NCBI GenBank assembly: GCA_964468315.1
Contig: CAYXTA010000003.1
Location: 19,000 to 82,999, forward strand
DNA from: an uncultured Candidatus Saccharibacteria bacterium
GTDB lineage: Bacteria > Patescibacteriota > Minisyncoccia > Phycocordibacterales > UBA9973
Length of the DNA stretch: 64,000 nucleotides
Direction of reading: 5' to 3'
The notes under the pieces are model-generated. The model was not told where the DNA came from. It saw only the letters and a list, made by a program, of their open reading frames with translations, and ran no database searches. This document shows, one piece after another, positions 47,256 through 62,570 of this stretch. Position numbers and translations under genes: made by a program. Each line of letters opens with the position of its first letter. Positions within the stretch are counted from its first letter, which is position 1.

Positions 47256-49403
47256 ATGGAAAGAGACTATCCACTAGAGAAAGTTAGAAATATCGGAATT
47301 ATTGCCCACATTGATGCGGGTAAGACAACGACAACAGAGCGTGTGCTTTATTATACAGGTGTTTCACATAAAATAGGTGAAGTTCACGACGGAGAAACAA
47401 CTACAGACTGGATGGAACAAGAGCGTGAAAGAGGTATCACTATTACTTCTGCTGCTGTTACTTGTTTCTGGACGCCTACATATGCAGGAACTGATAAAAC
47501 AAAGAAACATCGTTTCAATATTATCGACACACCTGGACACATCGACTTCACAGTGGAAGTAAAAAGATCTCTCCGTGTTCTCGACGGTGCTGTCGTCGTT
47601 TTCGACGGTGTTGCTGGTGTAGAACCTCAATCAGAAACAAACTGGCGTTATGCTGATGAAGCAAAAGTTCCACGTATTTGTTTCGTAAACAAACTTGATC
47701 GTACAGGTGCAAGTTTCGAGCATTCATTTGCTACTATTCTTGACCGTTTAAATAAAAATGCTGTGCGTTACCAAATCCCTATTGGTTTAGAAGATCAACA
47801 CGAAGGTGTTATCGATCTTTTGAAAATGAAAGCTTACTATTTCGAAGGTGAAATGGGTAATAAAGTTATCGAAAAAGAAATTCCTGAAAATATGAAAGCT
47901 GATGCAGAAAAATATCATGCTGAACTTGTTGAAAAAATAGTTGAGACAGATGATGTAATGATGACAGAATACTTGGATGGAAAAATACCAAGTATCGATG
48001 TTCTTAAAAAAACACTTCGTAAAGCTGTTATTAATAATGACATTTTCCCAGTTTTCGCTGGATCAGCATTGAAAAATAAGGGTGTACAACTCGTGCTCGA
48101 CGCTGTCATTGACTATTTACCAGCTCCTACAGACATTCCTCCTATCGGTGGAATAAACCCTGATACAGAAGAAGCGATGGTTCGCCATGCTTCTGATATA
48201 GAACCTTTCTCAGCCCTTGCATTCAAGATCGCAACTGATCCATTCGTAGGACAAATTATTTTCTTCCGTGTATATTCTGGAACTCTTTCAGCTGGAAGTT
48301 ATGTTTACAATCCTAGAACTCGCAACAAAGAAAGAATCGGCCGTATCTTGCGTATGCATGCCAACGACCGTGAAGAAGTGAAACAAGTTTTCGCGGGAGA
48401 AATCGCAGCTGCTGTGGGACTTAAAGATACAATTACTTCAGATACTATATGTGATGAAGCAAATCCAATTATCTTAGATCGTATCGTTTTTCCTGAACCA
48501 GTTATTTCTCTACGTATTGAACCAAAAACAAAAGCTGACCAAGAAAAAATGGGTATGGCACTAAACCGTCTCGCTCAAGAAGATCCAACTTTCAAAGTTT
48601 CAACTGATCAAGAAACAGGAGAAACAATTATTGCGGGAATGGGAGAACTTCATCTTGAAATCATTGTTGATCGTATGAAACGTGAATTTTCTGTTGAAGC
48701 AAATGTTGGTAAACCACAAGTTGCATACAGAGAAACTATCACTGGTTCTTCAGAAGTTGAAGGTAAATATATCAAACAATCTGGAGGTCGTGGAAACTAC
48801 GGTCACGTAAAAATCAAAATCAAACCTATGGCACCAATGACAAAAGAGGAAGTTGCAGATCTACCTAAAAACGTAAAGAGAACAGGAGAATTTGAATTCA
48901 TAAACACAATCAAAGGAGGTGCTATTCCACAAGAATACATTCCTGCTTGTGAAAAAGGATTCAAAGAAGGTCTCGATCGTGGAATTCTTGCTGGTTTCAA
49001 AATGGTGAATGTTTCTGTTGATCTTTGGGACGGATCTTTCCACGAAGTCGACTCAAACGAAATGGCTTTCAAAATCGCTGCTTCGATGGCAATACAAGAT
49101 GCTTGTAAAATGGCTCGTCCTGTTATTCTTGAACCTATGATGAAAGTAGAAGTTGTTACTCCAGATAAATTCATGGGAGACGTTACAGGGTCACTTTCAG
49201 CAAAACGTGGAATCATCGAAGGTATGGAAGATCGTGGTATGAACAAAGTTGTAAAAGGCGTTGTTCCACTTTCTGAAATGTTCGGTTATATGACAAACCT
49301 TCGTTCTATGACAGAAGGTCGTGCAGGATTCACTATGGAATTCCTACGTTACGACATCGTGCCACAAAACGTAGCCGATACAATCATCGCTTCTAGAAAA
49401 TAA
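47256..49403 (+). CDS. fusA: elongation factor G
   Basis: [14 protein letters not shown]-domain and full EF-G length and motifs. Confidence 0.97.
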
Positions 49404-49424
49404 TTTTATAAAATTAAATTCACA

Positions 49425-49461
49425 AAAGCCCTGCCGGACATGTCCGGCAGGGCTTTTGCTT
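49425..49461 (+). terminator. terminator: perfect 28-bp palindrome agccctgccggacatgtccggcagggct + T-run
   Basis: read directly. Confidence 0.7.
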
Positions 49462-49463
49462 TA

Positions 49464-49492
49464 TTGACAAAAAACCATTTTAGCTCAATACT
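49464..49492 (+). promoter_or_regulatory. promoter TTGACA-17-AATACT
   Basis: adjacent to the terminator. Confidence 0.4.
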
Positions 49493-49552
49493 AGTGTTTA
49501 GATAGCAAATAGTGCTGTAATTTTTCTTTAATAACATTAAATAATTTAAAAA

Positions 49553-49711
49553 ATGAAAATATTGTTAATAATAAATATTTTTGAAAAAACTCTAGGACCT
49601 TTATGGTTTCTAATTATTTTTTTCAGTGTTCTAGCTTTGTTTATAGTCATTTTATTTAAACCTTGGCAAAAAAATAAAAAGCTTAAGCAACCAAAAAACG
49701 AAAGAAATTAA
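49553..49711 (+). CDS. possible small membrane protein (52 aa)
   Basis: MKILLIINIFEKTLGPLWFLIIFFSVLALFIVILFKPWQKNKKLKQPKNERN, one TM; below ORF-track cutoff. Confidence 0.3.
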   Translation: MKILLIINIFEKTLGPLWFLIIFFSVLALFIVILFKPWQKNKKLKQPKNERN

Positions 49712-49758
49712 AACTCACAAAAATTCACTAAATACTAAACAAAAAAACGCAAAAACGT

Positions 49759-50079
49759 ATGAAACACTTAGAGATTTTTACTAGATTGAAAAACGGAGAG
49801 ATTATTTTTATTGAAAGTTGTAACATTGAAAAGAAAAAATTCTTTGGTTCTACTCTTCATTCTAGAATTTTAAAATTAAAACATTACAAATTCGATGAAA
49901 TAGACGATTCTTGGAGTTTACTTGGTGATAATGAAAAATTAGAAATTCTAAAAAAGCATTATAAATCTTTAGATTATTATGATGTTAATTTAACAAGTAC
50001 AAAAACAAGACATAGTCTCCTTACGGATTCTATTCTAATACAACCTTTCTTAAACTCTCGTTCTAAAAAAGTTGCTTAA
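49759..50079 (+). CDS. hypothetical protein (106 aa)
   Basis: ORF only; sits between fusA and tuf. Confidence 0.4.
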   Translation: MKHLEIFTRLKNGEIIFIESCNIEKKKFFGSTLHSRILKLKHYKFDEIDDSWSLLGDNEKLEILKKHYKSLDYYDVNLTSTKTRHSLLTDSILIQPFLNSRSKKVA

Positions 50080-50096
50080 AATCTAAAACCAAAAAA

Positions 50097-50345
50097 ATGG
50101 AACCAAATGTATATGATCTTTCAAAAAGTTTTGTGAATAAAGAAAAGTCCTGTGTACATGTACCTGTTCAAATTTTTGGTCCCAGATCAAATTGGGTGGA
50201 CATTCCACTTGTTTTTGAGCTTTCTATTCTTTTGGAAAATCATTACAAGGATTTAATGTTTACTGGTAAGTATGCTGTACCACAAGAAAAAAAAATAAAA
50301 GAGTATCTTTTTTATTTTAAACAAAATAAAGCCGACCCGAAATAA
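50097..50345 (+). CDS. hypothetical protein (82 aa)
   Basis: ORF only; stop overlaps the terminator hairpin. Confidence 0.4.
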   Translation: MEPNVYDLSKSFVNKEKSCVHVPVQIFGPRSNWVDIPLVFELSILLENHYKDLMFTGKYAVPQEKKIKEYLFYFKQNKADPK

Positions 50346-50361
50346 AGGGCCGGCTTTTTTA
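50331..50361 (+). terminator. terminator (gccgaccc-gaaataaa-gggccggc + T6)
   Basis: 8-bp stem with one mismatch. Confidence 0.55.
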
Positions 50362-50362
50362 T

Positions 50363-50390
50363 TTGACAATGTTTTTTAATTTGCTATTAT
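50363..50390 (+). promoter_or_regulatory. promoter TTGACA-16-TATTAT, about 150 nt upstream of tuf
   Basis: read directly. Confidence 0.5.
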
Positions 50391-50539
50391 AGACCTAACT
50401 GCACTTTTGGCAGTTTTTATATTGCCGAAAGAGTAAAATTGTTTATAAAAATTTATTATTAGTTTTAATTAAGTTAGTAGTTAAGCCTTAGCGACTGGTT
50501 CTCGTACGTTAAGTTTTACTTATTAGCTAAAATAATCAT

Positions 50540-51736
50540 ATGGCATCAGAAGAATTTAAAAGAGACAAGCCACACGTAAACGTTGGTACTATCGGTCACG
50601 TTGACCACGGAAAGACTACTTTAACAGCAGCTATTTTGAACGTTCTTAATCTTAACGGTAAGACTGTTAAAATGAAGGGTGTTGGAGATATCGACAATGC
50701 TCCTGAAGAAAAAGCTCGTGGAATCACTATTAATATTTCACACAACGAGTATTCTACAGATACTCGTCACTATGCTCACATTGATGCTCCAGGTCACGCT
50801 GACTACATCAAAAACATGATCACTGGTGCTGCTCAAATGGACGGTGCTATCCTCGTAGTTGCTGCTACAGACGGTGCTATGCCACAAACACGTGAACACG
50901 TTCTCCTTGCAAAACAAGTTGGTGTTCCAAAAATCATCGTTTTCCTTAACAAATGTGACATGGTTGATGATAAAGATATGATCGACCTCGTTGAAGAAGA
51001 AATACGTGAACTCCTTACAAAACAAGGCTTTGATGGCGCAGGTGCTCCAGTTATCCGTGGATCAGCTCTAAAAGGTCTTGAAGCTACATCAGCTGATGAC
51101 GAATGGGCAAAGAAGATCATGGATCTTGCAAACGCTCTTGATACATATATCCCAGTTCCAGAACGAGATACAGCAAAACCTTTCCTTATGGCTATAGAAG
51201 ACATCTTTTCTATCGAAGGACGTGGAACAGTTGTAACTGGAAAAATCGAAAGAGGTATCGTAAAAGTTGGTGAAGACGTTGAAGTTGTTGGTATTAAAGC
51301 AACACAAAAGACTACAGTTACTGGTATTGAAATGTTCAACAAGAACCTTCAAGAAGGTATGGCTGGAGACAACGCTGGAATCCTTCTACGTGGACTTAAG
51401 AAAGATGATATAACTCGTGGACAAGTTCTTTCAAAACCAGGAACTGTTACTCCACATGATAACTTTACTTGTGAAGTTTACATCTTGAAAAAAGAAGAAG
51501 GTGGACGTCATACTCCATTCTTCAAAGGTTACAAGCCTCAATTCTACATCCGTACTACAGACGTTACAGGAGAAGTTGAACTAGCAGAAGGAGTAGAAAT
51601 GGTTATGCCTGGAGATACTGCAAAATTCACAGTTAAATTGGTTACACCAGTAGCTCTCGAAGAACAACAACGTTTTGCTATCCGTGAAGGAGGTAAGACA
51701 GTTGGTGCCGGAGTTGTTACTAAAATTATTGCTTAA
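50540..51736 (+). CDS. tuf: elongation factor Tu
   Basis: [14 protein letters not shown]...DAPGHADY...NKCD canonical. Confidence 0.97.
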
Positions 51737-51763
51737 TTAAATTAAAAAAGTCTATTAGCTCTT

Positions 51764-52159
51764 ATGACAACAGCAGAAACAAAAACAAAAAAGCCTAAAA
51801 CAGCATCTTCAGTGAAAGCTTCCAAAATGAAAGAAAAGAAGGAAGAAGGAAAAGAAGTGGTATTACGAATCCGAGTTCGTGCTTACGAGAGCAAGATTTT
51901 GGATGCGTCTGTAAAACAGATTATCGATACAGCTATGCGTTACGATGCAAAAGTTGTCGGTCCTGTACCACTTCCTACTGAGATCAAAAAATATACAGTA
52001 AACCGTGCTTCTTTTGTTTACAAAAATGCTCGCGAGCAATTTGAAATGAGAGTACATAAGAGAGTGATTGATATTTTAAATCCATCACCAAAGACTATCG
52101 AAGCGTTGACGAGTTTATCTCTTCCTTCAGGAGTCGATATAGATGTAAAAATGATATAA
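51764..52159 (+). CDS. rpsJ: 30S ribosomal protein S10 with about 30-aa Lys-rich N-terminal extension
   Basis: core RIRVRAYESKILD...GPVPLPT matches S10. Confidence 0.95.
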   Translation: MTTAETKTKKPKTASSVKASKMKEKKEEGKEVVLRIRVRAYESKILDASVKQIIDTAMRYDAKVVGPVPLPTEIKKYTVNRASFVYKNAREQFEMRVHKRVIDILNPSPKTIEALTSLSLPSGVDIDVKMI

Positions 52160-52172
52160 AAGAGATAAATTT

Positions 52173-52787
52173 ATGAAATTCATTCTTGGAACAAAAGTTA
52201 ATATGACAGAGTATTTTTCTCCAGACGGACGCGTTGTTCCTGTAACAGTTATTTCAACTGGTCCAGTCAAAGTTGTCACTCTAAAATCAAAAGAAACAGA
52301 TGGTTATAATGCTGTACAAGTTGGTTATGGAGAGCAGAAAAAAGAAAGAGTAAACAAAGCTCAAATCGGACAAATGAAAGGAGATACTTTTAAAGTTCTC
52401 AAAGAATTTCGCCTAAAAGCTGGAGATACTTTCGAAGGTGCTGTCGGTGATACTATTGATTCTTCTATTTTTGAAGTTGGTGATAGTTTACAAGTATCAG
52501 GAATTTCAAAAGGTAAAGGTTTTCAAGGTGTCGTCAAAAGACACGGTTTCCATGGAGGCCCTAGAAGTCACGGTCAGAAACACTCAGAACGTGAGCCAGG
52601 ATCTATTGGTGGAGGTCTTCGTACACACGTACCAAAAGGTATGCGTATGGCAGGAAGAATGGGATCAGATAGAATTACTTACAAAAATTTAAAAGTAGTT
52701 TTTGTTGATAAAGAAAATAACACAATGCTTATCAAAGGAGCAATACCAGGCAAGCGTGGTGACGTTATTGAAATAACAGCAAGATAA
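52173..52787 (+). CDS. rplC: 50S ribosomal protein L3
   Basis: canonical. Confidence 0.95.
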   Translation: MKFILGTKVNMTEYFSPDGRVVPVTVISTGPVKVVTLKSKETDGYNAVQVGYGEQKKERVNKAQIGQMKGDTFKVLKEFRLKAGDTFEGAVGDTIDSSIFEVGDSLQVSGISKGKGFQGVVKRHGFHGGPRSHGQKHSEREPGSIGGGLRTHVPKGMRMAGRMGSDRITYKNLKVVFVDKENNTMLIKGAIPGKRGDVIEITAR

Positions 52788-52801
52788 TAAATATTAAAGT
52801 C

Positions 52802-53467
52802 ATGAAAGCAACAATCTACAATCAAAAAGGAACAAGTGCAGGTACTATCGATCTACCAGAGAGTGTATTCGGCTTGAAATGGAAAACTGACCTTGTGCAC
52901 CAAGTTGTAGAAGGTATCCGTAGTAACAAACGTGCTGGTACAGCTGACACAAAAGGCCGTGGAGAAGTGCGTGGAGGAGGTAAGAAGCCTTGGAAACAAA
53001 AAGGAACAGGACGTGCTCGTCACGGATCATCTCGCTCACCTATATGGGTTGGTGGAGGAGTCACACACGGACCACTTGCAGAAAAGAACTACAAGAAAAA
53101 GATCAACAAGAAAATGCGTATTGCCGCACTCTTCACAGTACTTTCAAAGAAATTCAAAGATGAAGAAATAATTTTTGTTGATTCACTTGCTCAATCAGCT
53201 ATCAAAACAAAGACTGCTATGGACGCTATAACAAATATTTCAAAAGGTGCTGGTATCAAAGACCTTGCAAGTGCAAAGAAAGCTCGTGCATTGGTTGCTC
53301 TATCAGAAAAAAATACAAATATACAAAAGAGTTTCAGAAATATTCCTTCTCTTGAAATGGCTGTTATACAAAATATAAACCCAATGCAATTATTGAATCA
53401 AAAATATTTGATAATAGAAAATCCAGAAGTCGCTATTGCATTTTTAACATCAAAATTAGAGAAATAA
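52802..53467 (+). CDS. rplD: 50S ribosomal protein L4
   Basis: canonical. Confidence 0.95.
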   Translation: MKATIYNQKGTSAGTIDLPESVFGLKWKTDLVHQVVEGIRSNKRAGTADTKGRGEVRGGGKKPWKQKGTGRARHGSSRSPIWVGGGVTHGPLAEKNYKKKINKKMRIAALFTVLSKKFKDEEIIFVDSLAQSAIKTKTAMDAITNISKGAGIKDLASAKKARALVALSEKNTNIQKSFRNIPSLEMAVIQNINPMQLLNQKYLIIENPEVAIAFLTSKLEK

Positions 53468-53471
53468 TTTT

Positions 53472-53747
53472 ATGGCAGATATAAAAATAATCAAAAAACC
53501 AAGAATCACAGAAAAAGCAGCAATCTTTGCAGAAAAGGGTGTATATACTTTCGAAGTTTCTCCGCGCGCTACAAAAAATGAAGTAGCAAAAGAAATCGAA
53601 AAGATATACAAAGTAAAACCTGTGAAAGTAAATATGTTGAAAATTCCAGTAAAGAAGACTTTTGTCCGTGGTAAAGAAGGTACAAAAAATGGTGGAAAGA
53701 AAGCGGTCGTGTATTTAAAAAAGGGCGACAAAATAGAATTGATTTAA
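53472..53747 (+). CDS. rplW: 50S ribosomal protein L23
   Basis: canonical. Confidence 0.93.
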   Translation: MADIKIIKKPRITEKAAIFAEKGVYTFEVSPRATKNEVAKEIEKIYKVKPVKVNMLKIPVKKTFVRGKEGTKNGGKKAVVYLKKGDKIELI

Positions 53748-53760
53748 TTTTTTAAAATAA

Positions 53761-54600
53761 ATGAAAACATACAAACCGACAAGTAAATCAAGAAGACAAA
53801 TGACAAACATCAAATACCGTGATGTTTTGACTAAGACTACACCTGAGAAATCTCTTACTTATGGCTTCAAAAGAAGTGTAGGAAGAAATAATCTCGGACG
53901 TATTACTACTCGTCACAAAGGTGCTGGACACAAGCGCTTATTTAGAGATGTTGATTTCTTGTATAACAAAAAAGATATTCCTGCAAAAATAACAAGTATA
54001 GAATATGATCCAAACCGTTCATCATTCATAGGACTTGTTGTTTACAAAGATGGAGAGAAGAGATATGTCATATTGCCTCAAACGGTAAAACCAGGAGACA
54101 CTTTTGTTGTTTCAGAAAATGCTGAACTCAAAGTAGGTAATCGTTTAATGCTTAAGAATATACCTGTTGGTACTTTTGTATACAACATAGAAATGAAAGC
54201 AGGATCTGGTGCAAAGATAGCTCGTTCTGCGGGAATATTTGCTCAAGTTGTTGCTAACGCTGATGGATATACAAATATAAAAATGCCTTCATCTGAAGTT
54301 CGTAAAGTTTCTGAACTCGCTTGGGCATCTGTCGGTTCTGTTTCAAACGAAGAGCATCACTTAGAGAACTATGGTAAAGCAGGACGTTCACGTTGGAAGG
54401 GTATAAGACCAACAGTTCGTGGTACTGCTATGAACCCAGTAGACCACCCATACGGAGGAGGAGAAGGACGCCAAGGACGCGGAACACGTCGACCAAAGAC
54501 TATGTGGGGTAAGGTTACAGGAGGAAGAAAGACAAGAACTCCAAAGAAATACTCAAACGTATTCATCGTATCACGCAGAAAGACAGGAAAGAACAAATAA
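53761..54600 (+). CDS. rplB: 50S ribosomal protein L2
   Basis: canonical (GRNN.GRIT.RH.GGGHK...). Confidence 0.97.
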   Translation: MKTYKPTSKSRRQMTNIKYRDVLTKTTPEKSLTYGFKRSVGRNNLGRITTRHKGAGHKRLFRDVDFLYNKKDIPAKITSIEYDPNRSSFIGLVVYKDGEKRYVILPQTVKPGDTFVVSENAELKVGNRLMLKNIPVGTFVYNIEMKAGSGAKIARSAGIFAQVVANADGYTNIKMPSSEVRKVSELAWASVGSVSNEEHHLENYGKAGRSRWKGIRPTVRGTAMNPVDHPYGGGEGRQGRGTRRPKTMWGKVTGGRKTRTPKKYSNVFIVSRRKTGKNK

Positions 54601-54613
54601 TATTAAAACTAAC

Positions 54614-54640
54614 AAAAATCCCCGAAAGGGGATTTTTGTT
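54614..54640 (+). terminator. terminator aaaaatccccgaaaggggatttttgtt (copy 2 of 2 identical)
   Basis: identical to 44591..44617. Confidence 0.7.
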
Positions 54641-54736
54641 ATTACTATTGACTTTTTATTTTGTTTATGCTATTTTGTATTTAAATACTGCGAATGCCGA
54701 AAGCAGAGAAAAATCGGTTCATTTAAAAAATATATA

Positions 54737-55324
54737 GTGGAAACAACAACAATTCTTGGTATGTTGGGAGGATTGCTGTCTTTGATAGCATATTTTCCTT
54801 ACTGGTATTCGATTTTTACTGGACATACCCGCCCGCAACGCGCAAGTTGGCTTATTTGGATCTTTTCTGATTCTTTGGTACTAGCAACATCAGGTGCTCT
54901 TGGTGCAAGAGATAGTTTATGGGTTCCTGTTGCTTATGTTATTGGAACAATAATTACTTTTATTTTTTCAATTAAAAAAGGACAAGGAGGAACACATTGG
55001 TTCGATATAGTCTGTCTTGGTATAACTTTTATGTCTGGTGTGCTTTGGTACATCACAGGAAACCCTTTTCAGTCTCTTTTGATTAATTTAACCATAGTAG
55101 CAATTGGAACAATTCCAACCCTATTAAAGGTATCAAAAGATCCATATTCAGAAAATATGACAGGTTTTATTTTCTGGACATCTGGAAGTTTCTGTAGCTT
55201 TTTAGCGGTAATGCTTGGAAATCGAATAACCATAGAGTTATGGTTGCAACCTTTGTGGTTTCTTGGACTTCAATTTCTTATGATGATGTTTATTATCATA
55301 TATCGAAGTTTTAAACGGAACTAA
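54737..55324 (+). CDS. polytopic membrane protein (195 aa, about 6 TM)
   Basis: hydrophobic helices throughout; inserted between rplB and rpsS. Confidence 0.55.
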   Translation: METTTILGMLGGLLSLIAYFPYWYSIFTGHTRPQRASWLIWIFSDSLVLATSGALGARDSLWVPVAYVIGTIITFIFSIKKGQGGTHWFDIVCLGITFMSGVLWYITGNPFQSLLINLTIVAIGTIPTLLKVSKDPYSENMTGFIFWTSGSFCSFLAVMLGNRITIELWLQPLWFLGLQFLMMMFIIIYRSFKRN

Positions 55325-55369
55325 ATAGATTAAAATCCTCGGACTGATACAGTTCGGGGATTTTTTATT

Positions 55370-55780
55370 TTGTTATATAATGGTTGTATGGAAAAAATGT
55401 CAGAAAAGAAAAGGTTTTCATTGGTAGCTCGGGCGAAGAGTTTTACTCATGCGGTGCGAGGTGTTTTTGTTTTTTTGAGGAGTACACACAATGCATGGGT
55501 GCATTTATTTGTTACTTTTATTGTTTTATTTTTAGGATTCTTTTTTAATATTTCTGCGACAGAATGGATAGAGTTAATCTTCGCAATAGGTTTTGTTTTT
55601 GTAGCTGAGGCCTTCAATACAGCCATAGAAATAGACATGGATCTCACAAGTCCAGAATATCATCCTTATGCTCGTGATACGAAGGACGTAGCTGCTGGGG
55701 CAGTGCTTATAGCTGTGAAAGTTGCAGTACTCGTTGGTCTCATTATTTTTGTTCCAAAATTTATTTCTTTTTTTAGTTAA
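55370..55780 (+). CDS. dgkA: prokaryotic diacylglycerol kinase/undecaprenol kinase family (DgkA)
   Basis: RSTHNAWVH...VAEAFNTAIEIDMDL...RDTKDVAAGAVL pattern, 3 TM. Confidence 0.8.
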   Translation: MLYNGCMEKMSEKKRFSLVARAKSFTHAVRGVFVFLRSTHNAWVHLFVTFIVLFLGFFFNISATEWIELIFAIGFVFVAEAFNTAIEIDMDLTSPEYHPYARDTKDVAAGAVLIAVKVAVLVGLIIFVPKFISFFS

Positions 55781-55872
55781 AACTCATTTTTATTTTTGAC
55801 ATTTTTTTTGTTTAGGTGTATAAATGTATTGAAAAATAATTCTTTTATAAACCTTCTAAAAATGAAAAACCT

Positions 55873-56379
55873 ATGGGAAATTTCACCGGAACAATGAATC
55901 CTGTTGCAGACAATTTATTACTTAAAAGAACTCCTGATTTTGAACCTAAAAAACTAATTGATTTTGTTGAAAACAGGAATCAAAGACATGTAATTTTACC
56001 TAAAAAAAGGTTACGTAATAATATTTTAAAAAACCATGTAGACGCAAGGTTTAAAAAAAATTACGTTGATCAATCCACAAATGAAAAAACACGAAAAATC
56101 ATTTTAGAATCTGAAGAACTTGCTGAAAAGAAAAGTTACAAGTTTTTAAAAGAAATGAATAAGTGTTTTGATCAGTTATCAAAAAATGAGATTTTAGAAA
56201 TAACATCTCAAATCAAACTCCTTACCTCTAATAATTGGACTTATTTTTGTTACAAAAAAGACTTTATTTCTATTGCTCCTAAAAATAGAAAGATATATCT
56301 TCGTTCAAAGAAAAGAGAAATGGGTCCTGGTTCTCGTGTTTTTATAATTAAAGATATCGGTAAAAAGAAATTAAAATAA
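55873..56379 (+). CDS. basic hypothetical protein (168 aa)
   Basis: ORF only. Confidence 0.45.
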   Translation: MGNFTGTMNPVADNLLLKRTPDFEPKKLIDFVENRNQRHVILPKKRLRNNILKNHVDARFKKNYVDQSTNEKTRKIILESEELAEKKSYKFLKEMNKCFDQLSKNEILEITSQIKLLTSNNWTYFCYKKDFISIAPKNRKIYLRSKKREMGPGSRVFIIKDIGKKKLK

Positions 56380-56383
56380 ACTA

Positions 56384-56414
56384 AAAAGACCCTAAAAATA
56401 AAGGGTCTTTTTTA
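56384..56414 (+). terminator. terminator (gaccct-aaaaataa-agggtc + T6)
   Basis: read directly. Confidence 0.55.
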
Positions 56415-56415
56415 T

Positions 56416-56444
56416 TTGACATAGTCATTTTGATATGCTAATAT
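56416..56444 (+). promoter_or_regulatory. promoter TTGACA-17-TAATAT
   Basis: consensus-like hexamers. Confidence 0.55.
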
Positions 56445-56489
56445 ATATACGAAATAGTTATTTAATATAAACCATAAAACAAAAGACTT

Positions 56490-56960
56490 ATGAACATTAC
56501 GACTGCCGAAGTAAAAGAAAAAACATTTACAAAAGAAAATGGAATATGGACAATCCATCCGTACCAAAAACAATCAGAAATAATTAAGAGTTACAAAGAA
56601 TTAAAGGTTTTTGAAACAAAAGGTAATTTCTCAAAAGATTTTGTAGTGAATTCCAGTTACATTGGAATGAGCCCAATTTCCTTTGAAGAAACGAAAACAA
56701 GATCTCTTGTTTCTAAAAAAATAATTGAACGGCTTTATAATTTTGGATTTTATCCAGAAATTGAAATCGTAAAAATTGTAAATCATATTTTTATTAAAGG
56801 TGAAAGTAACATGTCATATTATTTTCGTTACCAAAGTTGTTTGTTTGGTTTATTAAAAACCAATCAAACAAACCGTAATTTTTTAAGAAAAGAAGAAATT
56901 ACAAAAAAGACTATCGTTCCGGATGGTGGAATTATTTTGGATTTAGTAAACAAAAATTAA
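56490..56960 (+). CDS. hypothetical protein (156 aa)
   Basis: ORF only. Confidence 0.45.
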   Translation: MNITTAEVKEKTFTKENGIWTIHPYQKQSEIIKSYKELKVFETKGNFSKDFVVNSSYIGMSPISFEETKTRSLVSKKIIERLYNFGFYPEIEIVKIVNHIFIKGESNMSYYFRYQSCLFGLLKTNQTNRNFLRKEEITKKTIVPDGGIILDLVNKN

Positions 56961-56965
56961 AAACA

Positions 56966-57100
56966 ATGGAAAATAATCAATTGTCTACTAAAGAAAAATC
57001 AAAAGAAATAAAACCGAAATTGATAACAGATTTGTATAATTTGGCTAATCAGCTAAATGAAACAAAGAAGATAACCAAAGTTTGTTTTGATTGGAATTAA
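56966..57100 (+). CDS. possible small protein (44 aa)
   Basis: MENNQLSTKEKSKEIKPKLITDLYNLANQLNETKKITKVCFDWN; followed by a terminator. Confidence 0.3.
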   Translation: MENNQLSTKEKSKEIKPKLITDLYNLANQLNETKKITKVCFDWN

Positions 57101-57110
57101 TGTTCAAGTG

Positions 57111-57142
57111 AAAAGCCCCACACATTTAGTGGGGCTTTTTTA
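57111..57142 (+). terminator. terminator (gcccc-acacatttagt-ggggc + T6)
   Basis: read directly. Confidence 0.6.
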
Positions 57143-57159
57143 TTTACCTTAAGTAGAAT

Positions 57160-57187
57160 TTGACTTTATTTTGTATTTTGCTATTAT
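57160..57187 (+). promoter_or_regulatory. promoter TTGACT-16-TATTAT restarting the S10-spc operon at rpsS
   Basis: lies inside the ORF-track N-terminal extension of rpsS, which supports the internal ATG start. Confidence 0.55.
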
Positions 57188-57227
57188 GTATCTGAGCTCA
57201 GAAGGGCTCGTTTTATTATTATTTTTT

Positions 57228-57572
57228 ATGACAAGATCACTCAAAAAAGGAATATTCGTAGATGAAAAGCTTCTTGCAAAGATTGCAGGCAAGAGTCCTT
57301 TGCAGACTCCAATGATCAAGACTTGGAAAAGAGCTTCAACTATCTCACCAGAAATGGTTGGTTTCACTTTTGGTGTTCATAATGGTAAAACACACGTAGA
57401 AGTCCTTGTTACAGAAGATATGGTTGGCCATAGACTTGGTGAATTCTCTCCTACAAAGAAATTCAACAAACACGGAGGTAAAATGCAGAAAGAATTAGAG
57501 CAAAAGAAGAAAGAAACTGAAATAGCTCAAGCTAAATCAGCAAATGCTGCTGCTGATGCGAAAAAGAAATAA
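57228..57572 (+). CDS. rpsS: 30S ribosomal protein S19 with Lys/Ala-rich C-terminal tail
   Basis: [16 protein letters not shown]...GHRLGEF; start at ATG 57228. Confidence 0.93.
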
Positions 57573-57590
57573 TTTTAAATATAAACTACA

Positions 57591-58058
57591 ATGAAAGCAT
57601 TTTTAAAAAACTACAGACAATCACCACGTAAAGTTCGCCTCGTTGCGAATCTAATCAAAGGTAAAAGTGTTCCTCAAGCTATAGTAGAGCTTGATTATTT
57701 GGCGAAACGCGCAGGCGAGCCAATAGCAAAACTTTTAATGTCTGCTGTTTCAAATGCAAAAACAAATTTTAATATTGAAAAAGAAGATTTGATGGTTAAA
57801 GAACTCCGCGTAGACAAAGGTATTGTTATGAAAAGAATGATGCCAGCTGCGATGGGTACTGGTCACCGTATAAACAAGCGTACAAGTCACATCACAATAC
57901 TTCTATCAGAAAAGGGTGCAATGAAAGACAAGTCTGAAAACGAAAAGAATAATAAGGCAAATAAATCAAAGAATACAGAAGAAAAGAAAGAAGTAAAAGA
58001 AAAAACAGTTAAAAAAGCTCCCGCAAAAAAGGCCGTAGCTAAAAAAGCAAAAAAATAA
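57591..58058 (+). CDS. rplV: 50S ribosomal protein L22 with about 45-aa Lys-rich C-terminal extension
   Basis: core matches L22; tail KKAPAKKAVAKKAKK. Confidence 0.93.
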   Translation: MKAFLKNYRQSPRKVRLVANLIKGKSVPQAIVELDYLAKRAGEPIAKLLMSAVSNAKTNFNIEKEDLMVKELRVDKGIVMKRMMPAAMGTGHRINKRTSHITILLSEKGAMKDKSENEKNNKANKSKNTEEKKEVKEKTVKKAPAKKAVAKKAKK

Positions 58059-58062
58059 TTTT

Positions 58063-58740
58063 ATGTCAAAAATAGTACACCCATATGCACATAGATTGAT
58101 AATCCTCCGAGACTGGAAATCTCGCTGGTTTGCTGATGACAAAAAATATGTAGAATTCCTAAAAGGGGATGTACTTTTGCGTGAATTCTTAGAAAAGAAA
58201 CTTCGTGGTTTTTATGTTTCTTCTATCGAAATAGAAAGAAGTCAAAAATCTACACGTTTCATAATCCGTACATCACGCCCAGGTCTTATTATCGGCCGTA
58301 CAGGTGAAGGTGCAGTAAAGCTAAAAGCTGAAATAGTAAAGAAAATGCAAAAGCTAAATCTTACTAAATCAGAAGAATTGAAACTCGATATAGTAGAAAT
58401 ACCAAACCCAGAAGCTGATGCTGCTATCGTTGCTTATATGATCGCTGAGGGTATGGAAAAGAGAATGCCTTACCGTCGTGTTATCAAACAAGTTATAGAA
58501 AAAGTTATGGGTACAAGAGGAGTAGAAGGAGCACGTGTTGTTCTTTCAGGTAGACTCGGTGGTGCTGAAATCGCTCGTACAGAAGAACTCAAGAAAGGTT
58601 CAATTCCACTTCAAACTTTCCGTGCAGATATCGATTTCAAGAGAGAAAAAGCACATTTACCATACGGAGATGTCGGTATAAAAGTTTGGATTTACCGTGG
58701 AGAAATTTTTAATGATAAAAAGAAAGTAGAAGTTAAATAA
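58063..58740 (+). CDS. rpsC: 30S ribosomal protein S3
   Basis: KH + S3-C domains. Confidence 0.96.
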   Translation: MSKIVHPYAHRLIILRDWKSRWFADDKKYVEFLKGDVLLREFLEKKLRGFYVSSIEIERSQKSTRFIIRTSRPGLIIGRTGEGAVKLKAEIVKKMQKLNLTKSEELKLDIVEIPNPEADAAIVAYMIAEGMEKRMPYRRVIKQVIEKVMGTRGVEGARVVLSGRLGGAEIARTEELKKGSIPLQTFRADIDFKREKAHLPYGDVGIKVWIYRGEIFNDKKKVEVK

Positions 58741-58750
58741 TTTTAAATAT

Positions 58751-59179
58751 ATGTTAGTACCAAAAAAAGTAAAATTTAGAAAGTGGCATACAATGCGCCT
58801 AAACCCAAAGGCGATGACTTCTGATACGCGTGGCACAAAGCTTGCTTTCGGATCTTTTGGTTTGAAATCAGAAACTCAAGGAAGAGTAAAATCAAATCAA
58901 ATCGAATCTGCTCGTAAAGCAATGACTCGTACACTTACTAAAGCTGGAAAATCATGGATTCGTATTTTCCCAGACAGACCTTTCACTGCAAAAGCTGCAG
59001 AAGTAGGTATGGGAAAGGGAAAAGGTGATCCACAAGGTTATTTCTTTGAAGTTTTCCCTGGACGTATTATATTTGAAGTAGATGGAGTAGATGAAAAAAT
59101 AGCCCGTGAAGCACTTCGTAAAGCAGGTACAAAGCTTCCTTTAAAAACAAGAATTATTTCAAGAGTTCACAAAAAATAA
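58751..59179 (+). CDS. rplP: 50S ribosomal protein L16
   Basis: canonical. Confidence 0.96.
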   Translation: MLVPKKVKFRKWHTMRLNPKAMTSDTRGTKLAFGSFGLKSETQGRVKSNQIESARKAMTRTLTKAGKSWIRIFPDRPFTAKAAEVGMGKGKGDPQGYFFEVFPGRIIFEVDGVDEKIAREALRKAGTKLPLKTRIISRVHKK

Positions 59180-59185
59180 AATTTT

Positions 59186-59383
59186 ATGGCAAAAAAGAAA
59201 GAAAATTTAAAAGAAATGAGTGTAGCAGATTTGAACAAAAGTGTATCTGCATTACATGAAGAGCTCCGTACTATACGCTTCAAAGCACAAGGTACAAAAG
59301 CAAAGAATGTAAAACATGAAGCTACAACAAAGAAACAAATCGCTCGTCTTATGACAGAGATAACTGCAAAAAGTAAAAAATAA
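59186..59383 (+). CDS. rpmC: 50S ribosomal protein L29
   Basis: canonical. Confidence 0.9.
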   Translation: MAKKKENLKEMSVADLNKSVSALHEELRTIRFKAQGTKAKNVKHEATTKKQIARLMTEITAKSKK

Positions 59384-59402
59384 TTTTAAATTATAAAGTA
59401 TT

Positions 59403-59663
59403 ATGAAAACAACAAAAAACACAAAAGAAAAAGTAGAGAACGGCAAATCCTTACAAGGGGTGGTTGTTTCTGATAAGATGGACAAGACTGTTGTTGTTTC
59501 TGTTTCACGTTTCGTTAAACACCCAAAATATGGAAAATTCTACAAAGTAAGTAAGAAATACAAAGCACATGATGCAGAAAATGCATTTCATACTGGAGAC
59601 AAAGTAGAAATAATAGAAACAAGACCAATATCAAAAGATAAGAAGTTTAAAGTCGTTAAGTAA
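59403..59663 (+). CDS. rpsQ: 30S ribosomal protein S17
   Basis: canonical. Confidence 0.93.
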
Positions 59664-59685
59664 TATATCGAAGTAAAATAATTTT

Positions 59686-60057
59686 ATGATACAAACAGAA
59701 ACATTAGTAAAAATAACAGATAACGGAGGAGGAACAGTTGGAAAAGTTTTCAAGGTTCTTGGCTCTGCACACAAAAGATACGCACGTCTCGGTGAGATCG
59801 TTATTATTTCTGTGAAAGTAGCAACACCAAGAAAGGCTATAAAGAAGAAAGACGTTCACCAAGCTGTAGTTGTCCGTACTCGTAGTGCTTTCCGTAGAAA
59901 AGATGGTTCATATATTCGCTTTGATGATAACGCTGTTGTTATATTAGAAAAAGGAAAGAAAGATCCAAAAGCAGGACGTGTTTTCGGACCAATACCAAGA
60001 GAGCTTGCTGAGAAAGGTTTCCAAAAGATTATTTCTCTAGCACCGGAAGTTATATAA
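59686..60057 (+). CDS. rplN: 50S ribosomal protein L14
   Basis: canonical. Confidence 0.96.
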   Translation: MIQTETLVKITDNGGGTVGKVFKVLGSAHKRYARLGEIVIISVKVATPRKAIKKKDVHQAVVVRTRSAFRRKDGSYIRFDDNAVVILEKGKKDPKAGRVFGPIPRELAEKGFQKIISLAPEVI

Positions 60058-60075
60058 TATTTTAAATACAAAGAT

Positions 60076-60381
60076 ATGAAATTAAAAAAAGGAGACAATG
60101 TAATAGTTATCGCAGGAAAAGACAAAGGCAAGAAAGGTAAAATTGCTCGTGTTTTGACTGCAGAAAATCGTGTAGTTGTTGAAGGTATCAACATGATGAA
60201 GAAACATCAACGTCCACGAAAGTCTGGAGAAAAAGGACAAGTTATTTCTATTGCATCACCTATCAATGCTTCAAATGTAATGTTTTCTGATCCAAAAAGT
60301 GGAAAGCCTACAAAGATCGGTAAGAAAAAAGTAGGGGACAAGATTGTCCGCATTGCAAAAAAGAGTGGTCAAGAAATTTAA
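60076..60381 (+). CDS. rplX: 50S ribosomal protein L24
   Basis: KOW motif. Confidence 0.93.
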   Translation: MKLKKGDNVIVIAGKDKGKKGKIARVLTAENRVVVEGINMMKKHQRPRKSGEKGQVISIASPINASNVMFSDPKSGKPTKIGKKKVGDKIVRIAKKSGQEI

Positions 60382-60399
60382 TTTTTTAAATAAATATAT

Positions 60400-60969
60400 A
60401 TGAAACACATAACTGTAAAAGAAAAAGACGCTATGGCATTCGAAAAGATGAAAGGTCTTTTTGGCTACAAAAACAAAATGGCTGCTCCAAGACTTCAAAA
60501 AGTTGTTATCAATGTTGGTACTGGTACAGGTATCAAGAAAGATAAGAATCGCAATGAATTCATCTCTGGAAGATTAGAAAAAATCACAGGACAAAAAGCA
60601 GCACTCCGTGGCGCAAAGAAATCTATCGCATCTTTCAAAGTTCGCCAAGGTGACCCTATTGGTGTTATGACTACTCTGCGTGGAAAGAGAATGTTTGCTT
60701 TCGTTGAAAAGCTTATTAATGTTACTCTTCCTCGTACAAAAGACTTCCGTGGTATTTCTCGTAGAGTTGTGGATGATATCGGAAATATGACTATCGGCGT
60801 CAAAGAACACACAATATTTCCTGAAACAGCTGATGAAGATATAAAAGACGTTTTCGGTTTCGCTATCACTATCGTTTCTTCTGCTAAAACTAAAAAAGAA
60901 GGTACTGCATTCTTCGAACTCTTAGGTATTCCATTCAAGACTGAAGAAGATAGTAAAAAGAAGAAATAA
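60400..60969 (+). CDS. rplE: 50S ribosomal protein L5
   Basis: canonical. Confidence 0.96.
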   Translation: MKHITVKEKDAMAFEKMKGLFGYKNKMAAPRLQKVVINVGTGTGIKKDKNRNEFISGRLEKITGQKAALRGAKKSIASFKVRQGDPIGVMTTLRGKRMFAFVEKLINVTLPRTKDFRGISRRVVDDIGNMTIGVKEHTIFPETADEDIKDVFGFAITIVSSAKTKKEGTAFFELLGIPFKTEEDSKKKK

Positions 60970-60984
60970 AAAACTTTAAACTTA

Positions 60985-61016
60985 AAAAACACTCTTAGAA
61001 ATAAGGGTGTTTTTTA
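60985..61016 (+). terminator. terminator (cactctt-agaaat-aagggtg + T6)
   Basis: read directly. Confidence 0.55.
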
Positions 61017-61017
61017 T

Positions 61018-61046
61018 TTGACAATTTTTTATCTATATGATATATT
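61018..61046 (+). promoter_or_regulatory. promoter TTGACA-17-TATATT
   Basis: read directly. Confidence 0.55.
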
Positions 61047-61077
61047 GTATTCAAATAAACCTTAAAAAATTATAGCT

Positions 61078-61782
61078 ATGTTAGTAGAAAAAAGTACCTT
61101 ATTTGTGATTGCCTCAGTGGTATTATTTACCATTTATTGTCTTATTGTTTTTTTAATAAAAAAAGCAAGAAGATTAAAATTGTTCCGAATTGCCATTGAA
61201 AATGGCGTTAATGCTGATGTAAGAAATATCTTTGATCAGCTGGCTGTTGCTTCTGCAAAATTGAATGACCGGGAGTATAAATCACTTTTTAAATGTTTTG
61301 GTAGTATTTACGCAAAATCACTTACAGAATCATTGCAAGACTCTTCAATATTGATTGCTACACGATTAAGTTTCTTGAATAACTTTTTAAGTTATTACCC
61401 AAGAACTTTTATTTCACCCTTTGTTTGTTTAAAATTTGCAGAAGAGCTTCAAAATGATTCAAATAGTCGTTTGTTAGATTTACAAACTCTACATACGATA
61501 ATAAATCGTTTTGCTAATAATCCTGAAGAGAGTAATGAACATGATTATCGTAACGTAAGAGATTTATACATTGTTGTTTTTAATAAAGTCATCAATAAAA
61601 AACTTGAGGATATTTCTTTTAAAGACACGGAATCTTTTCTCTCTATTTTTAATAATTTCTTTTATATTAGTAAAGAAAATGAAATTCTTGCTGAGAATAT
61701 TCGTCAAAAAGCCAAAGAAGTACTTTATTTACGTGTAACCTCACTTGAGATTGAATTATTAAAAGAAAAAAAGGTTAGCTAG
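61078..61782 (+). CDS. membrane-anchored hypothetical protein (234 aa) inserted between rplE and the S14 gene
   Basis: N-terminal TM LFVIASVVLFTIYCLIVFLI; no recognisable domain. Confidence 0.5.
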   Translation: MLVEKSTLFVIASVVLFTIYCLIVFLIKKARRLKLFRIAIENGVNADVRNIFDQLAVASAKLNDREYKSLFKCFGSIYAKSLTESLQDSSILIATRLSFLNNFLSYYPRTFISPFVCLKFAEELQNDSNSRLLDLQTLHTIINRFANNPEESNEHDYRNVRDLYIVVFNKVINKKLEDISFKDTESFLSIFNNFFYISKENEILAENIRQKAKEVLYLRVTSLEIELLKEKKVS

Positions 61783-61803
61783 CTCAAAACACAGACACAT
61801 CTT

Positions 61804-61838
61804 AAAACCCCGCCACAAAAATGTAGCGGGGTTTTTAT
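61804..61838 (+). terminator. terminator (ccccgc-cacaaaaatgta-gcgggg + T5)
   Basis: read directly. Confidence 0.6.
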
Positions 61839-61867
61839 TTGACTATTTTTAGAGCTTCTGCTAGTAT
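61839..61867 (+). promoter_or_regulatory. promoter TTGACT-17-TAGTAT restarting the spc operon
   Basis: read directly. Confidence 0.5.
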
Positions 61868-61973
61868 AGAGGAGTTCCTCATTTAGGTTGATCTGTATTT
61901 CTCCTTAAGGCTTTTTAAAAGGTTTTAAGAAAAAATACAAGATATCACTTAGAAAAAGGACGATATTTTAATT

Positions 61974-62159
61974 ATGGCAAAAACATCAGTCGTCGCGAGA
62001 GCGGCAAAAAAGCAAAAGTTTTCTACACGGGTTAAAAACCGATGTTTTCGTTGTGGTCGTGGAAACGGTTTTATGAGAGATTTCGGTATTTGCCGTATCT
62101 GTTTCAGAGAACTAGCAAACGAAGGTATGCTTCCAGGTATCCGCAAGTCATCTTGGTAA
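61974..62159 (+). CDS. rpsZ: 30S ribosomal protein S14 type Z (zinc-binding)
   Basis: 61 aa; CFRCGR...CRICFRE. Confidence 0.95.
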   Translation: MAKTSVVARAAKKQKFSTRVKNRCFRCGRGNGFMRDFGICRICFRELANEGMLPGIRKSSW

Positions 62160-62174
62160 TATTTAAATAAATTT

Positions 62175-62561
62175 ATGGATCAAATCGCAAACATGATAAT
62201 AATGATGAAGAATGCAAGTTTGGCAAAGCGCCCAACGACTGTATTTCCTCATTCAAAAATGAAACAAGCTATTTTGGAATGTCTTAAGAAAGAGGGATAC
62301 ATCGTAGGATTTTCAAAGAAATCAAGAAAAGGTTTCCCAGTGCTCGAAGTAGAGCTTTTATATGTTGACGGAAAGGCAAAAATCACAGACGTAGACAGAG
62401 TTTCAAAACAATCACGCCGTACATACTTTGGAGTAAAAGATATCAGACCAGTAAGAAATGGTTTCGGTTCTGTAATTCTTTCAACTCCAAAAGGAATAAT
62501 GTCTGGAAAAGAAGCAAAGAAAGAAATGGTCGGAGGTGAAGCATTGTTTAAAATTTGGTAA
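62175..62561 (+). CDS. rpsH: 30S ribosomal protein S8
   Basis: canonical. Confidence 0.95.
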   Translation: MDQIANMIIMMKNASLAKRPTTVFPHSKMKQAILECLKKEGYIVGFSKKSRKGFPVLEVELLYVDGKAKITDVDRVSKQSRRTYFGVKDIRPVRNGFGSVILSTPKGIMSGKEAKKEMVGGEALFKIW

Positions 62562-62570
62562 TAAAATTAT

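Follow-up and report, generated by a model that had tools for sequence, protein, structure and literature searches.

In the 64,000-nt stretch of a Patescibacteria genome analysed here (the window; GC content ~33%), the S10-spc row of ribosomal protein genes is broken between rplB (encodes L2) and rpsS (encodes S19). The gap runs from the end of rplB at 54600 to the rpsS ATG at 57228, spans 2,627 nt and holds five plus-strand open reading frames (ORFs) for non-ribosomal proteins, as the initial annotation of this DNA had stated. We consider it probable that the break reflects an ancestral fission of the S10 operon at rplB|rpsS, which created a permissive slot, flanked by core genes, in which genes turn over fast. 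The initial annotation had taken the five genes for a single insertion and had named ancestry of the arrangement in the clade as the finding that would speak against this. For the break, such ancestry is what we found; the contents of the gap alone vary.

Gene adjacencies were measured by tblastn in 80 loci around L2 homologues from species-representative genomes, which were the best 80 of 588 L2 matches (L2 identity 52-94%; loci are denoted by three-digit L numbers). A neighbour-joining tree was built from 11 concatenated ribosomal proteins of 62 related genomes and the window. The window fell in a monophyletic Paceibacteria clade of 37 taxa, and in 37 of 37 the L2|S19 junction was open, by 76-7,347 nt; the genomes of this clade are labelled Nomura-, Vogel-, Taylor- and Zambryskibacteria. 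The gap was 9,696 nt in L054, a relative outside the tree. Among the outgroups, which include the sister Giovannonibacteria and Bacilli, the junction was tight (-13 to 99 nt) in 26 of 26. The window L2 protein was 94% identical to L2 of a Candidatus Nomurabacteria metagenome-assembled genome, and all close matches were from Paceibacterota / Nomurabacteria; exact look-up of the protein gave no match. The source of the window is likewise a metagenome-assembled genome, and an assembly or binning artefact could have joined unrelated contigs at the break. The probability of this is practically negligible. Independent assemblies from four other data sets (L086, L087, L089 and L090) match the window at 100% identity over the junctions, which rules out an assembly artefact, and homologous arrangements are present in dozens of genomes from different studies.

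We propose the following mechanism. In the common ancestor of this large Paceibacteria clade, the S10 operon would have split at rplB|rpsS, giving two transcription units. Of these, the upstream one (S10 to L2) would stop at a strong intrinsic terminator after rplB, and the downstream one (S19 to L5) would have its own near-consensus sigma-70 promoter, with an extended -10 element and a short 5′ leader of hairpin and U-tract. Because the essential downstream genes would then be independent of read-through from rplB, insertions between terminator and promoter would be harmless, with polarity constraints removed. Cargo genes would enter this slot as self-contained cassettes with their own promoter and terminator, to be gained, lost and exchanged, and the likely route of exchange would be homologous recombination in the conserved flanks and in conserved inter-cassette modules.

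A transcription stop after rplB and a restart at a dedicated rpsS promoter, also proposed in the initial annotation, are very probable, the promoter being kept in 34 relatives. In the window the cargo is closed by a predicted plus-strand intrinsic terminator at 57110-57140 (fold -19.5 kcal/mol, z -5.7), and the clade-conserved rpsS promoter TTGACT-16-(TG)CTATTAT follows at 57160-57187, with 10 of 12 consensus matches plus the TG. Both this terminator and the TTGACT-16-TATTAT promoter had been called correctly. The module before rpsS in 34 clade genomes consists of TTGACW, a spacer of 16-17 nt, TGnTAnnAT, ~7 nt, a hairpin (usually AGCUC-loop-GAGCU) and a U-run. It is present whatever the size or content of the gap, including L021, where the gap is 76 nt with no gene and the promoter directly follows the L2 stop codon. 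A consensus promoter scan was by itself non-significant (70 sites found vs 65 expected). We infer restart at rpsS mainly from the conservation of this promoter amid otherwise unalignable spacers, which is the best available sign of it. A strict terminator was found within 160 nt of the L2 stop codon in ~25 of 39 clade loci. The four terminators predicted in the block of the window each have a stable GC-containing hairpin and a U-tract (-14 to -20.5 kcal/mol, z -4.9 to -6.9), and terminator-like sites are ~3-fold enriched in the region 43000-62900 (31 found vs 9.9 ± 3.4 expected).

The predicted rpsS 5′ leader (57193-57227, plus strand; fold -9.1 kcal/mol, z -3.0) has the hairpin GAGCUC-AGAA-GGGCUC at about +5 to +25 and a U-rich tract up to the ATG, with no Shine-Dalgarno sequence. 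A hairpin and U-run were predicted in 34 of 34 aligned rpsS leaders (mean z -2.4). The element is small (5-7-bp hairpin plus U-run), and its stem is mostly conserved in sequence (5′ arm GCUC ≥90% conserved); in the four most distant members (L041, L052, L054 and L066) the stem sequences are different and the hairpin and U-tract are kept. The tuf, rpsL and rpsN promoters (50363-50415, 43600-43660 and 61838-61880) are, like that of rpsS, followed within ~10 nt by a small hairpin and U-rich tract. The promoters of the cargo genes have no such leader. A hairpin and U-tract after the promoter may be a type of 5′ leader that translation genes have in common. Shine-Dalgarno sequences are absent from the window genes, consistent with the reported frequent loss of the anti-Shine-Dalgarno motif in Parcubacteria (PMC9297842). 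The rpsS gene itself (57228-57572, plus strand; Pfam S19 match in the identical locus L087) opens the restarted unit S19-L22-S3-L16-L29-S17-L14-L24-L5, and its product has an Ala/Lys-rich C-terminal tail, in agreement with the Parcubacteria-specific C-terminal extension of S19 (PMC9297842).

The ribosomal genes of the window lie on the plus strand in canonical order from rpsL (43664) to rplR (63469), and rplB (53761-54600) is the last gene of the upstream unit S10-L3-L4-L23-L2. It is followed at 54610-54641 by a putative bidirectional intrinsic terminator with a 14-bp stem, a GAAA loop, an A-run upstream and a T-run downstream (fold -20.5 kcal/mol, z -6.9). The first cargo slot, on the plus strand like the genes and promoter-like sites after it, has the promoter-like site TTGACT-17-TATTTT with an upstream TG (54648-54676). 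It holds a gene of 195 aa with a GTG start (54737-55324; ORF plus AlphaFold/Foldseek), which is followed by a plus-strand intrinsic terminator (55332-55364; fold -19.3 kcal/mol, z -6.8). Next come a dgkA-family lipid kinase gene (130 aa, 55388-55780) and o168, which encodes a basic protein of 168 aa (55873-56379). No terminator was found between these two genes. The promoter-like site before o168 (TTGACA-17-TATAAA, 55796-55824) was read from the sequence and lies outside the top sites of the promoter scan. After o168 there is an intrinsic terminator without an assigned strand (56383-56412; fold -14.3 kcal/mol, z -4.9), and then a promoter-like site for o156-o44 (TTGACA-17-TAATAT with an upstream TG, 56416-56444), o156 (156 aa, 56490-56960) and o44 (44 aa, 56966-57100). 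The calls of o168 and o156 rest on their ORFs and syntenic homologues, and that of o44 on its ORF and a homologue in L174.

The terminator after rplB includes the 27-mer AAAAATCCCCGAAAGGGGATTTTTGTT, which occurs exactly twice in the window, at 44591-44617 after rpsG and from 54614 after rplB (0 expected in 100 shuffles). The initial annotation was right about the two copies, but they are not the sign of a common insertion. L011 and L005 have the design A(n)TCCCC-loop-GGGGAT(n) after rpsG, L008, L021 and L043 have looser variants of it there, and L001 and L006 have it after rplB. Because relatives carry the same stem design after both genes, we rejected the 27-mer as the scar of a common insertion mechanism. 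Judged by these sequence comparisons, the two copies are native terminators of the rpsG and rplB units, built to a low-information preferred design.

If a five-gene mobile island had recently entered an otherwise intact S10 operon in one event, this would explain 2.6 kb of non-ribosomal genes at this site, the lower GC content of the right half of the block (0.24-0.27), and the fact that L001, the closest GTDB relative, has only DgkA in common with the block. However, the junction is open in all members of the clade. No integrase, recombinase or transposase domain was detected in the five block proteins, and no direct or inverted repeats flank the block. A comparison of the block with the ordinary genes of the genome gave no foreign signature in composition, GC content at third codon positions (GC3) or codon adaptation. 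The parts of the block also have separate histories: DgkA is in the gap of 10 other genomes, o168/o156/o44 are syntenic in L171, L172 and L174, and the first gene is strain-specific. A recent mobile island is thus very unlikely, and the block is not one unit as had been supposed; it is a mosaic of parts with different ages. Under ancestral fission, the block would be the current state of the slot, in three layers: a PQ-loop-fold gene for a protein with seven transmembrane (TM) helices after rplB; dgkA as an old resident; and a core shared at the level of near relatives, in which two fast-evolving paralogous proteins and a 44-aa partner would exist as deeply divergent alleles among near-identical strains.

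We counted ~105 ORFs in the open L2|S19 gaps of 36 genomes. DgkA was the one family that recurred, in 11 genomes including the window; the other ORFs fell into three small clusters and 89 singletons. The same core interval therefore holds mostly unrelated genes in relatives, as in a horizontal-transfer hotspot. Pfam matches among 68 cargo proteins were heterogeneous and included enzymes of pyrimidine and proline biosynthesis, VIT1, FTR1, a mechanosensitive channel, a histidine kinase and others. The gap proteins of the closest GTDB relatives (L001, L019 and L004) could not be annotated. The cargo of L003, L031, L054 and other relatives also included a protein with a Cas1 domain, a transposase of IS1595 type that was confined to the gap of a single relative, a pair of PorV-like proteins and a match to the ribosomal L10 domain. 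In the synteny comparison suggested in the initial annotation, the gap genes vary between relatives; the opening of the junction itself is clade-wide.

Four closer relatives (L171, L172, L174 and L088) have the order L2, variable slot, DgkA, o168-family gene, o156-family gene with or without a small ORF, and S19. In L174 (L2 99.3% identical), the slot is occupied by a 106-aa lipoprotein-like gene and a 60-aa ORF, and identities are 94.6% for DgkA, 43% for o168, 78% for o156 and 68% for the 44-aa small ORF. In L172 (L2 96%), the slot holds a 97-aa lipoprotein-like gene, DgkA is 90%, o168 50% and o156 27% identical, and there is no small ORF. The covered part of L171 excludes L2, the slot and DgkA; it begins with a C-terminal fragment of o168, followed by an o156 gene (84%) and no small ORF. 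L088 is ~96-97% identical at the nucleotide level in the L2 region and has a 281-aa gene split in two in the slot, DgkA at 99%, o168 at 100%, o156 at 26% and a 51-aa ORF. The two overlapping ORFs of this signal-peptide gene (140 and 141 aa; L088 positions 948-1792) point to a frameshift pseudogene or an assembly error. The gene is 62-64% identical to the gene upstream of DgkA in L001; its description as PorV-like cargo in L001 and L088 was withdrawn, since a direct scan gave no Pfam match. Ribosomal proteins beside the divergent o168/o156 alleles (26-84% identity) are 96-100% identical in close relatives.

Alignment with these strains located the exchanges. Identity to the window is 95-99% for both L088 and L174 across L2, across the dgkA region (dgkA-o168 in L088) and again downstream from S19. 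The two strains share two points at which all homology breaks off, 54687 and 55332, and L088 has two more, 56520 and 57113; the replaced segments contain other genes or 26%-identical alleles. Both strains keep the slot-1 promoter (54648-54676) and the slot-1 terminator, which marks the right breakpoint (55332-55364), and the cargo-closing terminator (57110-57140) is the right-hand homology breakpoint in L088. Because the breakpoints coincide in L088 and L174, the swapped part is the coding cassette between a retained promoter and terminator. Synonymous divergence (dS) between the window and L174 is 0.48-1.3 in the cargo and 0.12-0.18 in the flanking ribosomal protein genes, a 3-10-fold difference, which fits the expectation for imported or long-maintained alleles. 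The ratio of non-synonymous to synonymous divergence (dN/dS) of the cargo ORFs is 0.05-0.41, indicating purifying selection and thus real genes.

The protein of the first slot had been described as a 6-TM protein; its AlphaFold model has seven predicted helices (pLDDT, the model confidence score, 89.4), the number expected for the 3+1+3 arrangement of PQ-loop/SWEET-type transporters. In Foldseek searches the model matched cystinosin, the KDEL receptor and SWEET with a probability of 1.0 and TM-scores of 0.58-0.64, at E values of only 2e-3 to 0.1 and with 10-14% identity to the solved structures. The family alignment has an invariant PQR after helix 1 and P-Y/H-S-E after helix 5; the conserved motifs of the protein are TRPQR and DPYSE. 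No match at E ≤ 0.1 was obtained with Pfam, including PQ-loop and MtN3_slv, or with NCBIfam. On the model, the protein is a transporter-like 7-TM protein of PQ-loop fold. Its homologues form 10 clusters, and the two contexts read were both unrelated ones elsewhere in other genomes from the candidate phyla radiation (CPR). Because the homologues sit in such unrelated contexts, we regard the gene as strain-specific here. In L088, L172 and L174 it is replaced by other genes.

The assignment of the second protein to the DgkA family, already made in the initial annotation, is supported by a full-length match to PF01219 (E 2e-31; 108.2 bits vs a cut-off of 22.3; profile positions 2-102 of 102). DgkA is present in the L2|S19 gap of 10 other genomes and also in L172 and L174 (90-95% identity), with dN/dS ~0.05. 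Among related DgkA genes in metagenome contigs, 8 adjoin L2 or S19 and 24 are elsewhere; the family is not restricted to the junction. Only 6 nt separate a TATAAT-like box (55376-55381) from the dgkA ATG, from which we suggest that the transcript may be leaderless.

The basic nature of the 168-aa protein was confirmed (pI 10.0; 23% Lys plus Arg). A word-based search had left o168 as an orphan; this was wrong, and syntenic homologues at 43-50% identity were found through the neighbouring genes and a profile search. The o168 family has only 4 clusters among 5.8 billion entries. Contexts were read for three of the four (P0017 excepted); all were in the L2|S19 gap, always between dgkA and an o156-family gene. 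The window and L088 copies differ by 3 synonymous and 0 non-synonymous changes, and dN/dS is 0.15-0.41 overall. For the o156 family, four representatives were found among 1.84 billion entries; its contexts in L171, L172, L174 and L088 are all in the L2|S19 gap, just upstream of rpsS, with dN/dS of 0.15-0.27. The AlphaFold model of o156 was too poor for use (pLDDT 50). An hhalign comparison of o156 with the o168 family gave a probability of 62% and E 7e-5 over 138 columns, and distant tandem paralogy of the two is probable. For o168, Pfam, NCBIfam, PHROG, PADLOC and PDB gave no match, and profile searches of NCBIfam, PHROGs, PADLOC and PDB gave nothing for the block proteins without an assignment. 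The 44-aa ORF is a real gene: a 68% identical 44-aa ORF occupies the same place in L174 (E 8e-19; dN/dS 0.35). Without counterpart in L171 and L172, o44 begins 5 nt after o156 and is probably co-translated with it. A similarity to the 51-aa ORF of L088 seen by eye had no BLASTP support.

The location of these genes could itself be selected, with dgkA and its neighbours made in step with ribosomes, which would couple envelope-lipid recycling to growth, or with the basic o168 and o156 proteins acting as lineage-specific ribosome-associated factors. DgkA recurs at L2|S19 in several sub-lineages, o168 is as basic as ribosomal proteins, the o156 members with context read and the same three o168 clusters are only at L2|S19, and slot 1 often holds genes for envelope proteins (the PQ-loop-fold protein, the lipoprotein-like proteins of 97 and 106 aa, the signal-peptide protein). 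However, each cargo unit has its own promoter and terminator and is insulated from transcription of the ribosomal genes. In most clade members the junction holds no DgkA, and many of the related DgkA genes have other locations; o168 and o156 occur in no more than a handful of close relatives, and their rate of evolution far exceeds that of any ribosomal protein; and the cargo of the clade is functionally heterogeneous. We therefore regard selected co-location as unlikely.

Three further junctions, S7|EF-G, EF-G|EF-Tu and L5|S14, are also recurrently open among relatives. L5|S14 tracks the clade most clearly; EF-G|EF-Tu is wide also in many outgroups. In the window, the downstream gene at each of the three has its own predicted promoter. 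Among closer relatives 17 of 21 adjacencies are almost always tight, and isolated gaps of 0.6-1.7 kb were seen at S10|L3 in L035, L043 and L048 and at L3|L4 in L023. Neutral erosion would also open junctions: in slow-growing, host-dependent CPR bacteria, relaxed selection for co-transcription of ribosomal protein genes would let junk and stray genes settle at random junctions, with no hotspot. Several junctions are indeed open in the clade, and S10|L3 is open in a sister lineage. However, the openings are non-random, because large gaps recur at the same four junctions and the other 17 are almost always tight; the rpsS and rpsN leaders are conserved and structured, and the cargo is under purifying selection. 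Neutral erosion is accordingly quite improbable, and operon fission at fixed points remains our preferred explanation.

Some features of these other junctions were recorded alongside. S7|EF-G (44577-47255) contains a gene for a PNP/UDP-family phosphorylase (44692-45597) and genes for two proteins without assignment, and varies widely among relatives. A 111-nt promoter and 5′ untranslated region module is repeated there at 77% identity, at 44601-44711 before the phosphorylase gene and at 45635-45745 before the next ORF; the copies have the stretch GAAATTAAAATAGTATAAACGTTATTTAAAAA in common. A 116-aa ORF at 45727-46077 has weak similarity to the RNA polymerase alpha C-terminal domain (NCBIfam E 0.002, far below the cut-off). 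EF-G|EF-Tu (49404-50539) has two small ORFs without assignment and likewise varies widely among relatives. The L5|S14 break (60970-61973) holds a gene for a 234-aa single-TM protein (61078-61782) with its own terminator and promoter; most members of the clade have an opening of 150-2,900 nt at this junction, which is tight in outgroups, and in L174 it holds a DnaA-C-domain gene. A separate lineage-specific break in the S10 operon was seen in sister lineages (L044, L053, L056, L058, L064 and L072, labelled Giovannoni-, Harrisonbacteria and others), where L2|S19 is tight and S10|L3 has a gap of 0.8-4.6 kb. Elsewhere in the window, an exact 300-nt duplication (29774-30073 and 30877-31176) lies in 29617-31176 with an adjacent 145-nt repeat (83% identity; spacing ~1.1 kb), and 20493-20618 consists of two tandem 63-nt units (81% identity).

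Within the L5|S14 break, covariation revealed a leader RNA at 61838-61973 (core 61882-61955), between the promoter TTGACT-17-TGCTAGTAT and rpsN. In its predicted fold, an internal loop with the invariant strands UUUCUCC and GAUAU is flanked by two covarying helices, and 14 of 18 pairs have compensatory changes. Aligned cells were paired in 95.8% of cases vs 78% in shuffled alignments and 33-57% with the partners slid, and 0 of 500 shuffles reached the observed value. The covariance model matched only 21 rpsN leaders, once per genome in 21 genomes, in 1.36 Mb. An Rfam scan of the region gave no leader family for rpsS or rpsN and, at E ≤ 1, only terminator-like chance matches; at gathering scores it gave only four tRNAs, elsewhere in the window. 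The strands UKAUC / GAUAUY of the leader resemble E. coli 16S helix 21 strands 594-599 UAAGUC / 639-644 GAUACU, although the G597-C643 pair would be A-U in the leader; no CPR 16S gene was found among the fetched loci. The invariant 3′ strand GAUAU, opposite UKAUC, resembles the S8-binding core, and S8 is encoded by the second gene of the rpsN unit (62175-62561). This suggests that the leader may have arisen, once the operon had been cut, as a mimic for autoregulation by S8.

A broader interpretation may be offered tentatively, and we consider it possible though rather doubtful. The superoperon could have been rebuilt into autonomous modules with leaders of their own, that of rpsS acting as an attenuator or stabiliser and that of rpsN as an S8 mimic with feedback on S14-S8-L6. 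The junctions could then serve as 'allele banks', in which balancing or diversifying selection, through host or phage interactions or strain-specific ribosome-associated factors, for example, keeps ancient alleles of o168/o156 and the 44-aa gene.

Several points weigh against fission followed by fast turnover, our preferred reading. Termination and promoter activity are predicted from sequence and conservation. A few outgroup junctions (73-99 nt) reach the size range of some small open gaps of the clade (76-133 nt). Sampling of the clade was based on L2 similarity (best 80 of 588 matches), and the tree is a simple neighbour-joining one of 11 proteins. The low dS of the ribosomal protein genes could partly reflect codon constraint, not recombination. 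A single capture of DgkA with vertical descent is not established: the neighbour-joining tree of DgkA does not separate single from repeated capture, and 24 contigs carry related genes elsewhere. An ancestral insertion could also have preceded the promoter, in place of the promoter-first order that the proposed mechanism would follow.

The adjacency of L2 and S19 and the S10-spc row as a whole are treated as near-invariant, and the row serves as one continuous block of markers when uncultured lineages are binned or placed in phylogenies. In this clade the row appears to have been cut at fixed points and restarted with dedicated promoters and leaders, and the cuts to have become slots for fast-evolving genes. 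The clade offers a natural experiment on operon fragmentation, on the regulation of ribosomal proteins that arises afterwards, and on where streamlined symbiont genomes keep flexible genes. Two products can be tested: an undescribed structured RNA before rpsN, and a very small, hypervariable family of proteins seen nowhere outside the ribosomal cluster.

The window has the gene order of the canonical str-S10-spc-alpha cluster of E. coli / B. subtilis type (S12-S7-EF-G-EF-Tu-S10-L3-L4-L23-L2-S19-L22-S3-L16-L29-S17-L14-L24-L5-S14-S8-L6-L18). The S10 operon of E. coli is a single 11-gene unit regulated by L4. Unlike the canonical cluster, the window has four internal breaks (S7|EF-G, EF-G|EF-Tu, L2|S19 and L5|S14), each with a predicted terminator, a new promoter and cargo. 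DgkA matches the DgkA / undecaprenol kinase family (PF01219) over its full length as a small multi-helix membrane protein, and its sole unusual feature is its location between rplB and rpsS. The slot-1 protein has in common with the PQ-loop/SWEET/cystinosin/KDEL-receptor superfamily the predicted 7-helix fold and the PQ motif after helix 1; it differs in having no sequence-profile match, 10-14% identity and a small family of 10 clusters.

Known autoregulatory leader RNAs of ribosomal protein operons, such as the spc-operon S8 site (Fu et al. 2013, PMC3616713), are similar in placing a structured RNA between a promoter and the first ribosomal protein gene, which is clear here for rpsN. The GAUAU strand of the rpsN leader resembles the S8 core GAUAC of 16S helix 21 and is a candidate mimic; the leaders described here differ in having no Rfam match and in their new positions before rpsN and rpsS.

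Genes inserted into ribosomal operon clusters are known from Gammaproteobacteria and Bacilli (Brandis 2021, PMC8046335; Brandis et al. 2019, PMC6735719). Most of those detailed there are between operons (tusDCB, bfd-bfr, ilv-leu), and nrdHEF is inside rpoBC. As in those cases, small sets of unrelated genes invade, and selection for synteny relaxes afterwards. In contrast, the insertions found here lie inside the S10 and spc operons, the break is fixed in a large CPR clade with a dedicated promoter and leader, and the contents vary at the strain level. Intervals flanked by core genes are known hotspots of gene transfer, in which genes turn over quickly and mobile-element genes are often lacking (Oliveira et al. 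2017, PMC5635113). The L2|S19 slot resembles these in its fixed interval, its rapid turnover and the absence of mobile-element genes from the block of the window. Unlike them, it lies within an operon of a streamlined CPR genome, its two flanking genes are among the most conserved in biology, and part of its turnover is an exchange of very divergent alleles of the same families. We found no report in the literature of a clade-wide, intra-operon L2|S19 break in CPR bacteria. Operon fission and the core-flanked hotspot are known phenomena; their combination in a clade-wide, intra-operon L2|S19 case is new.

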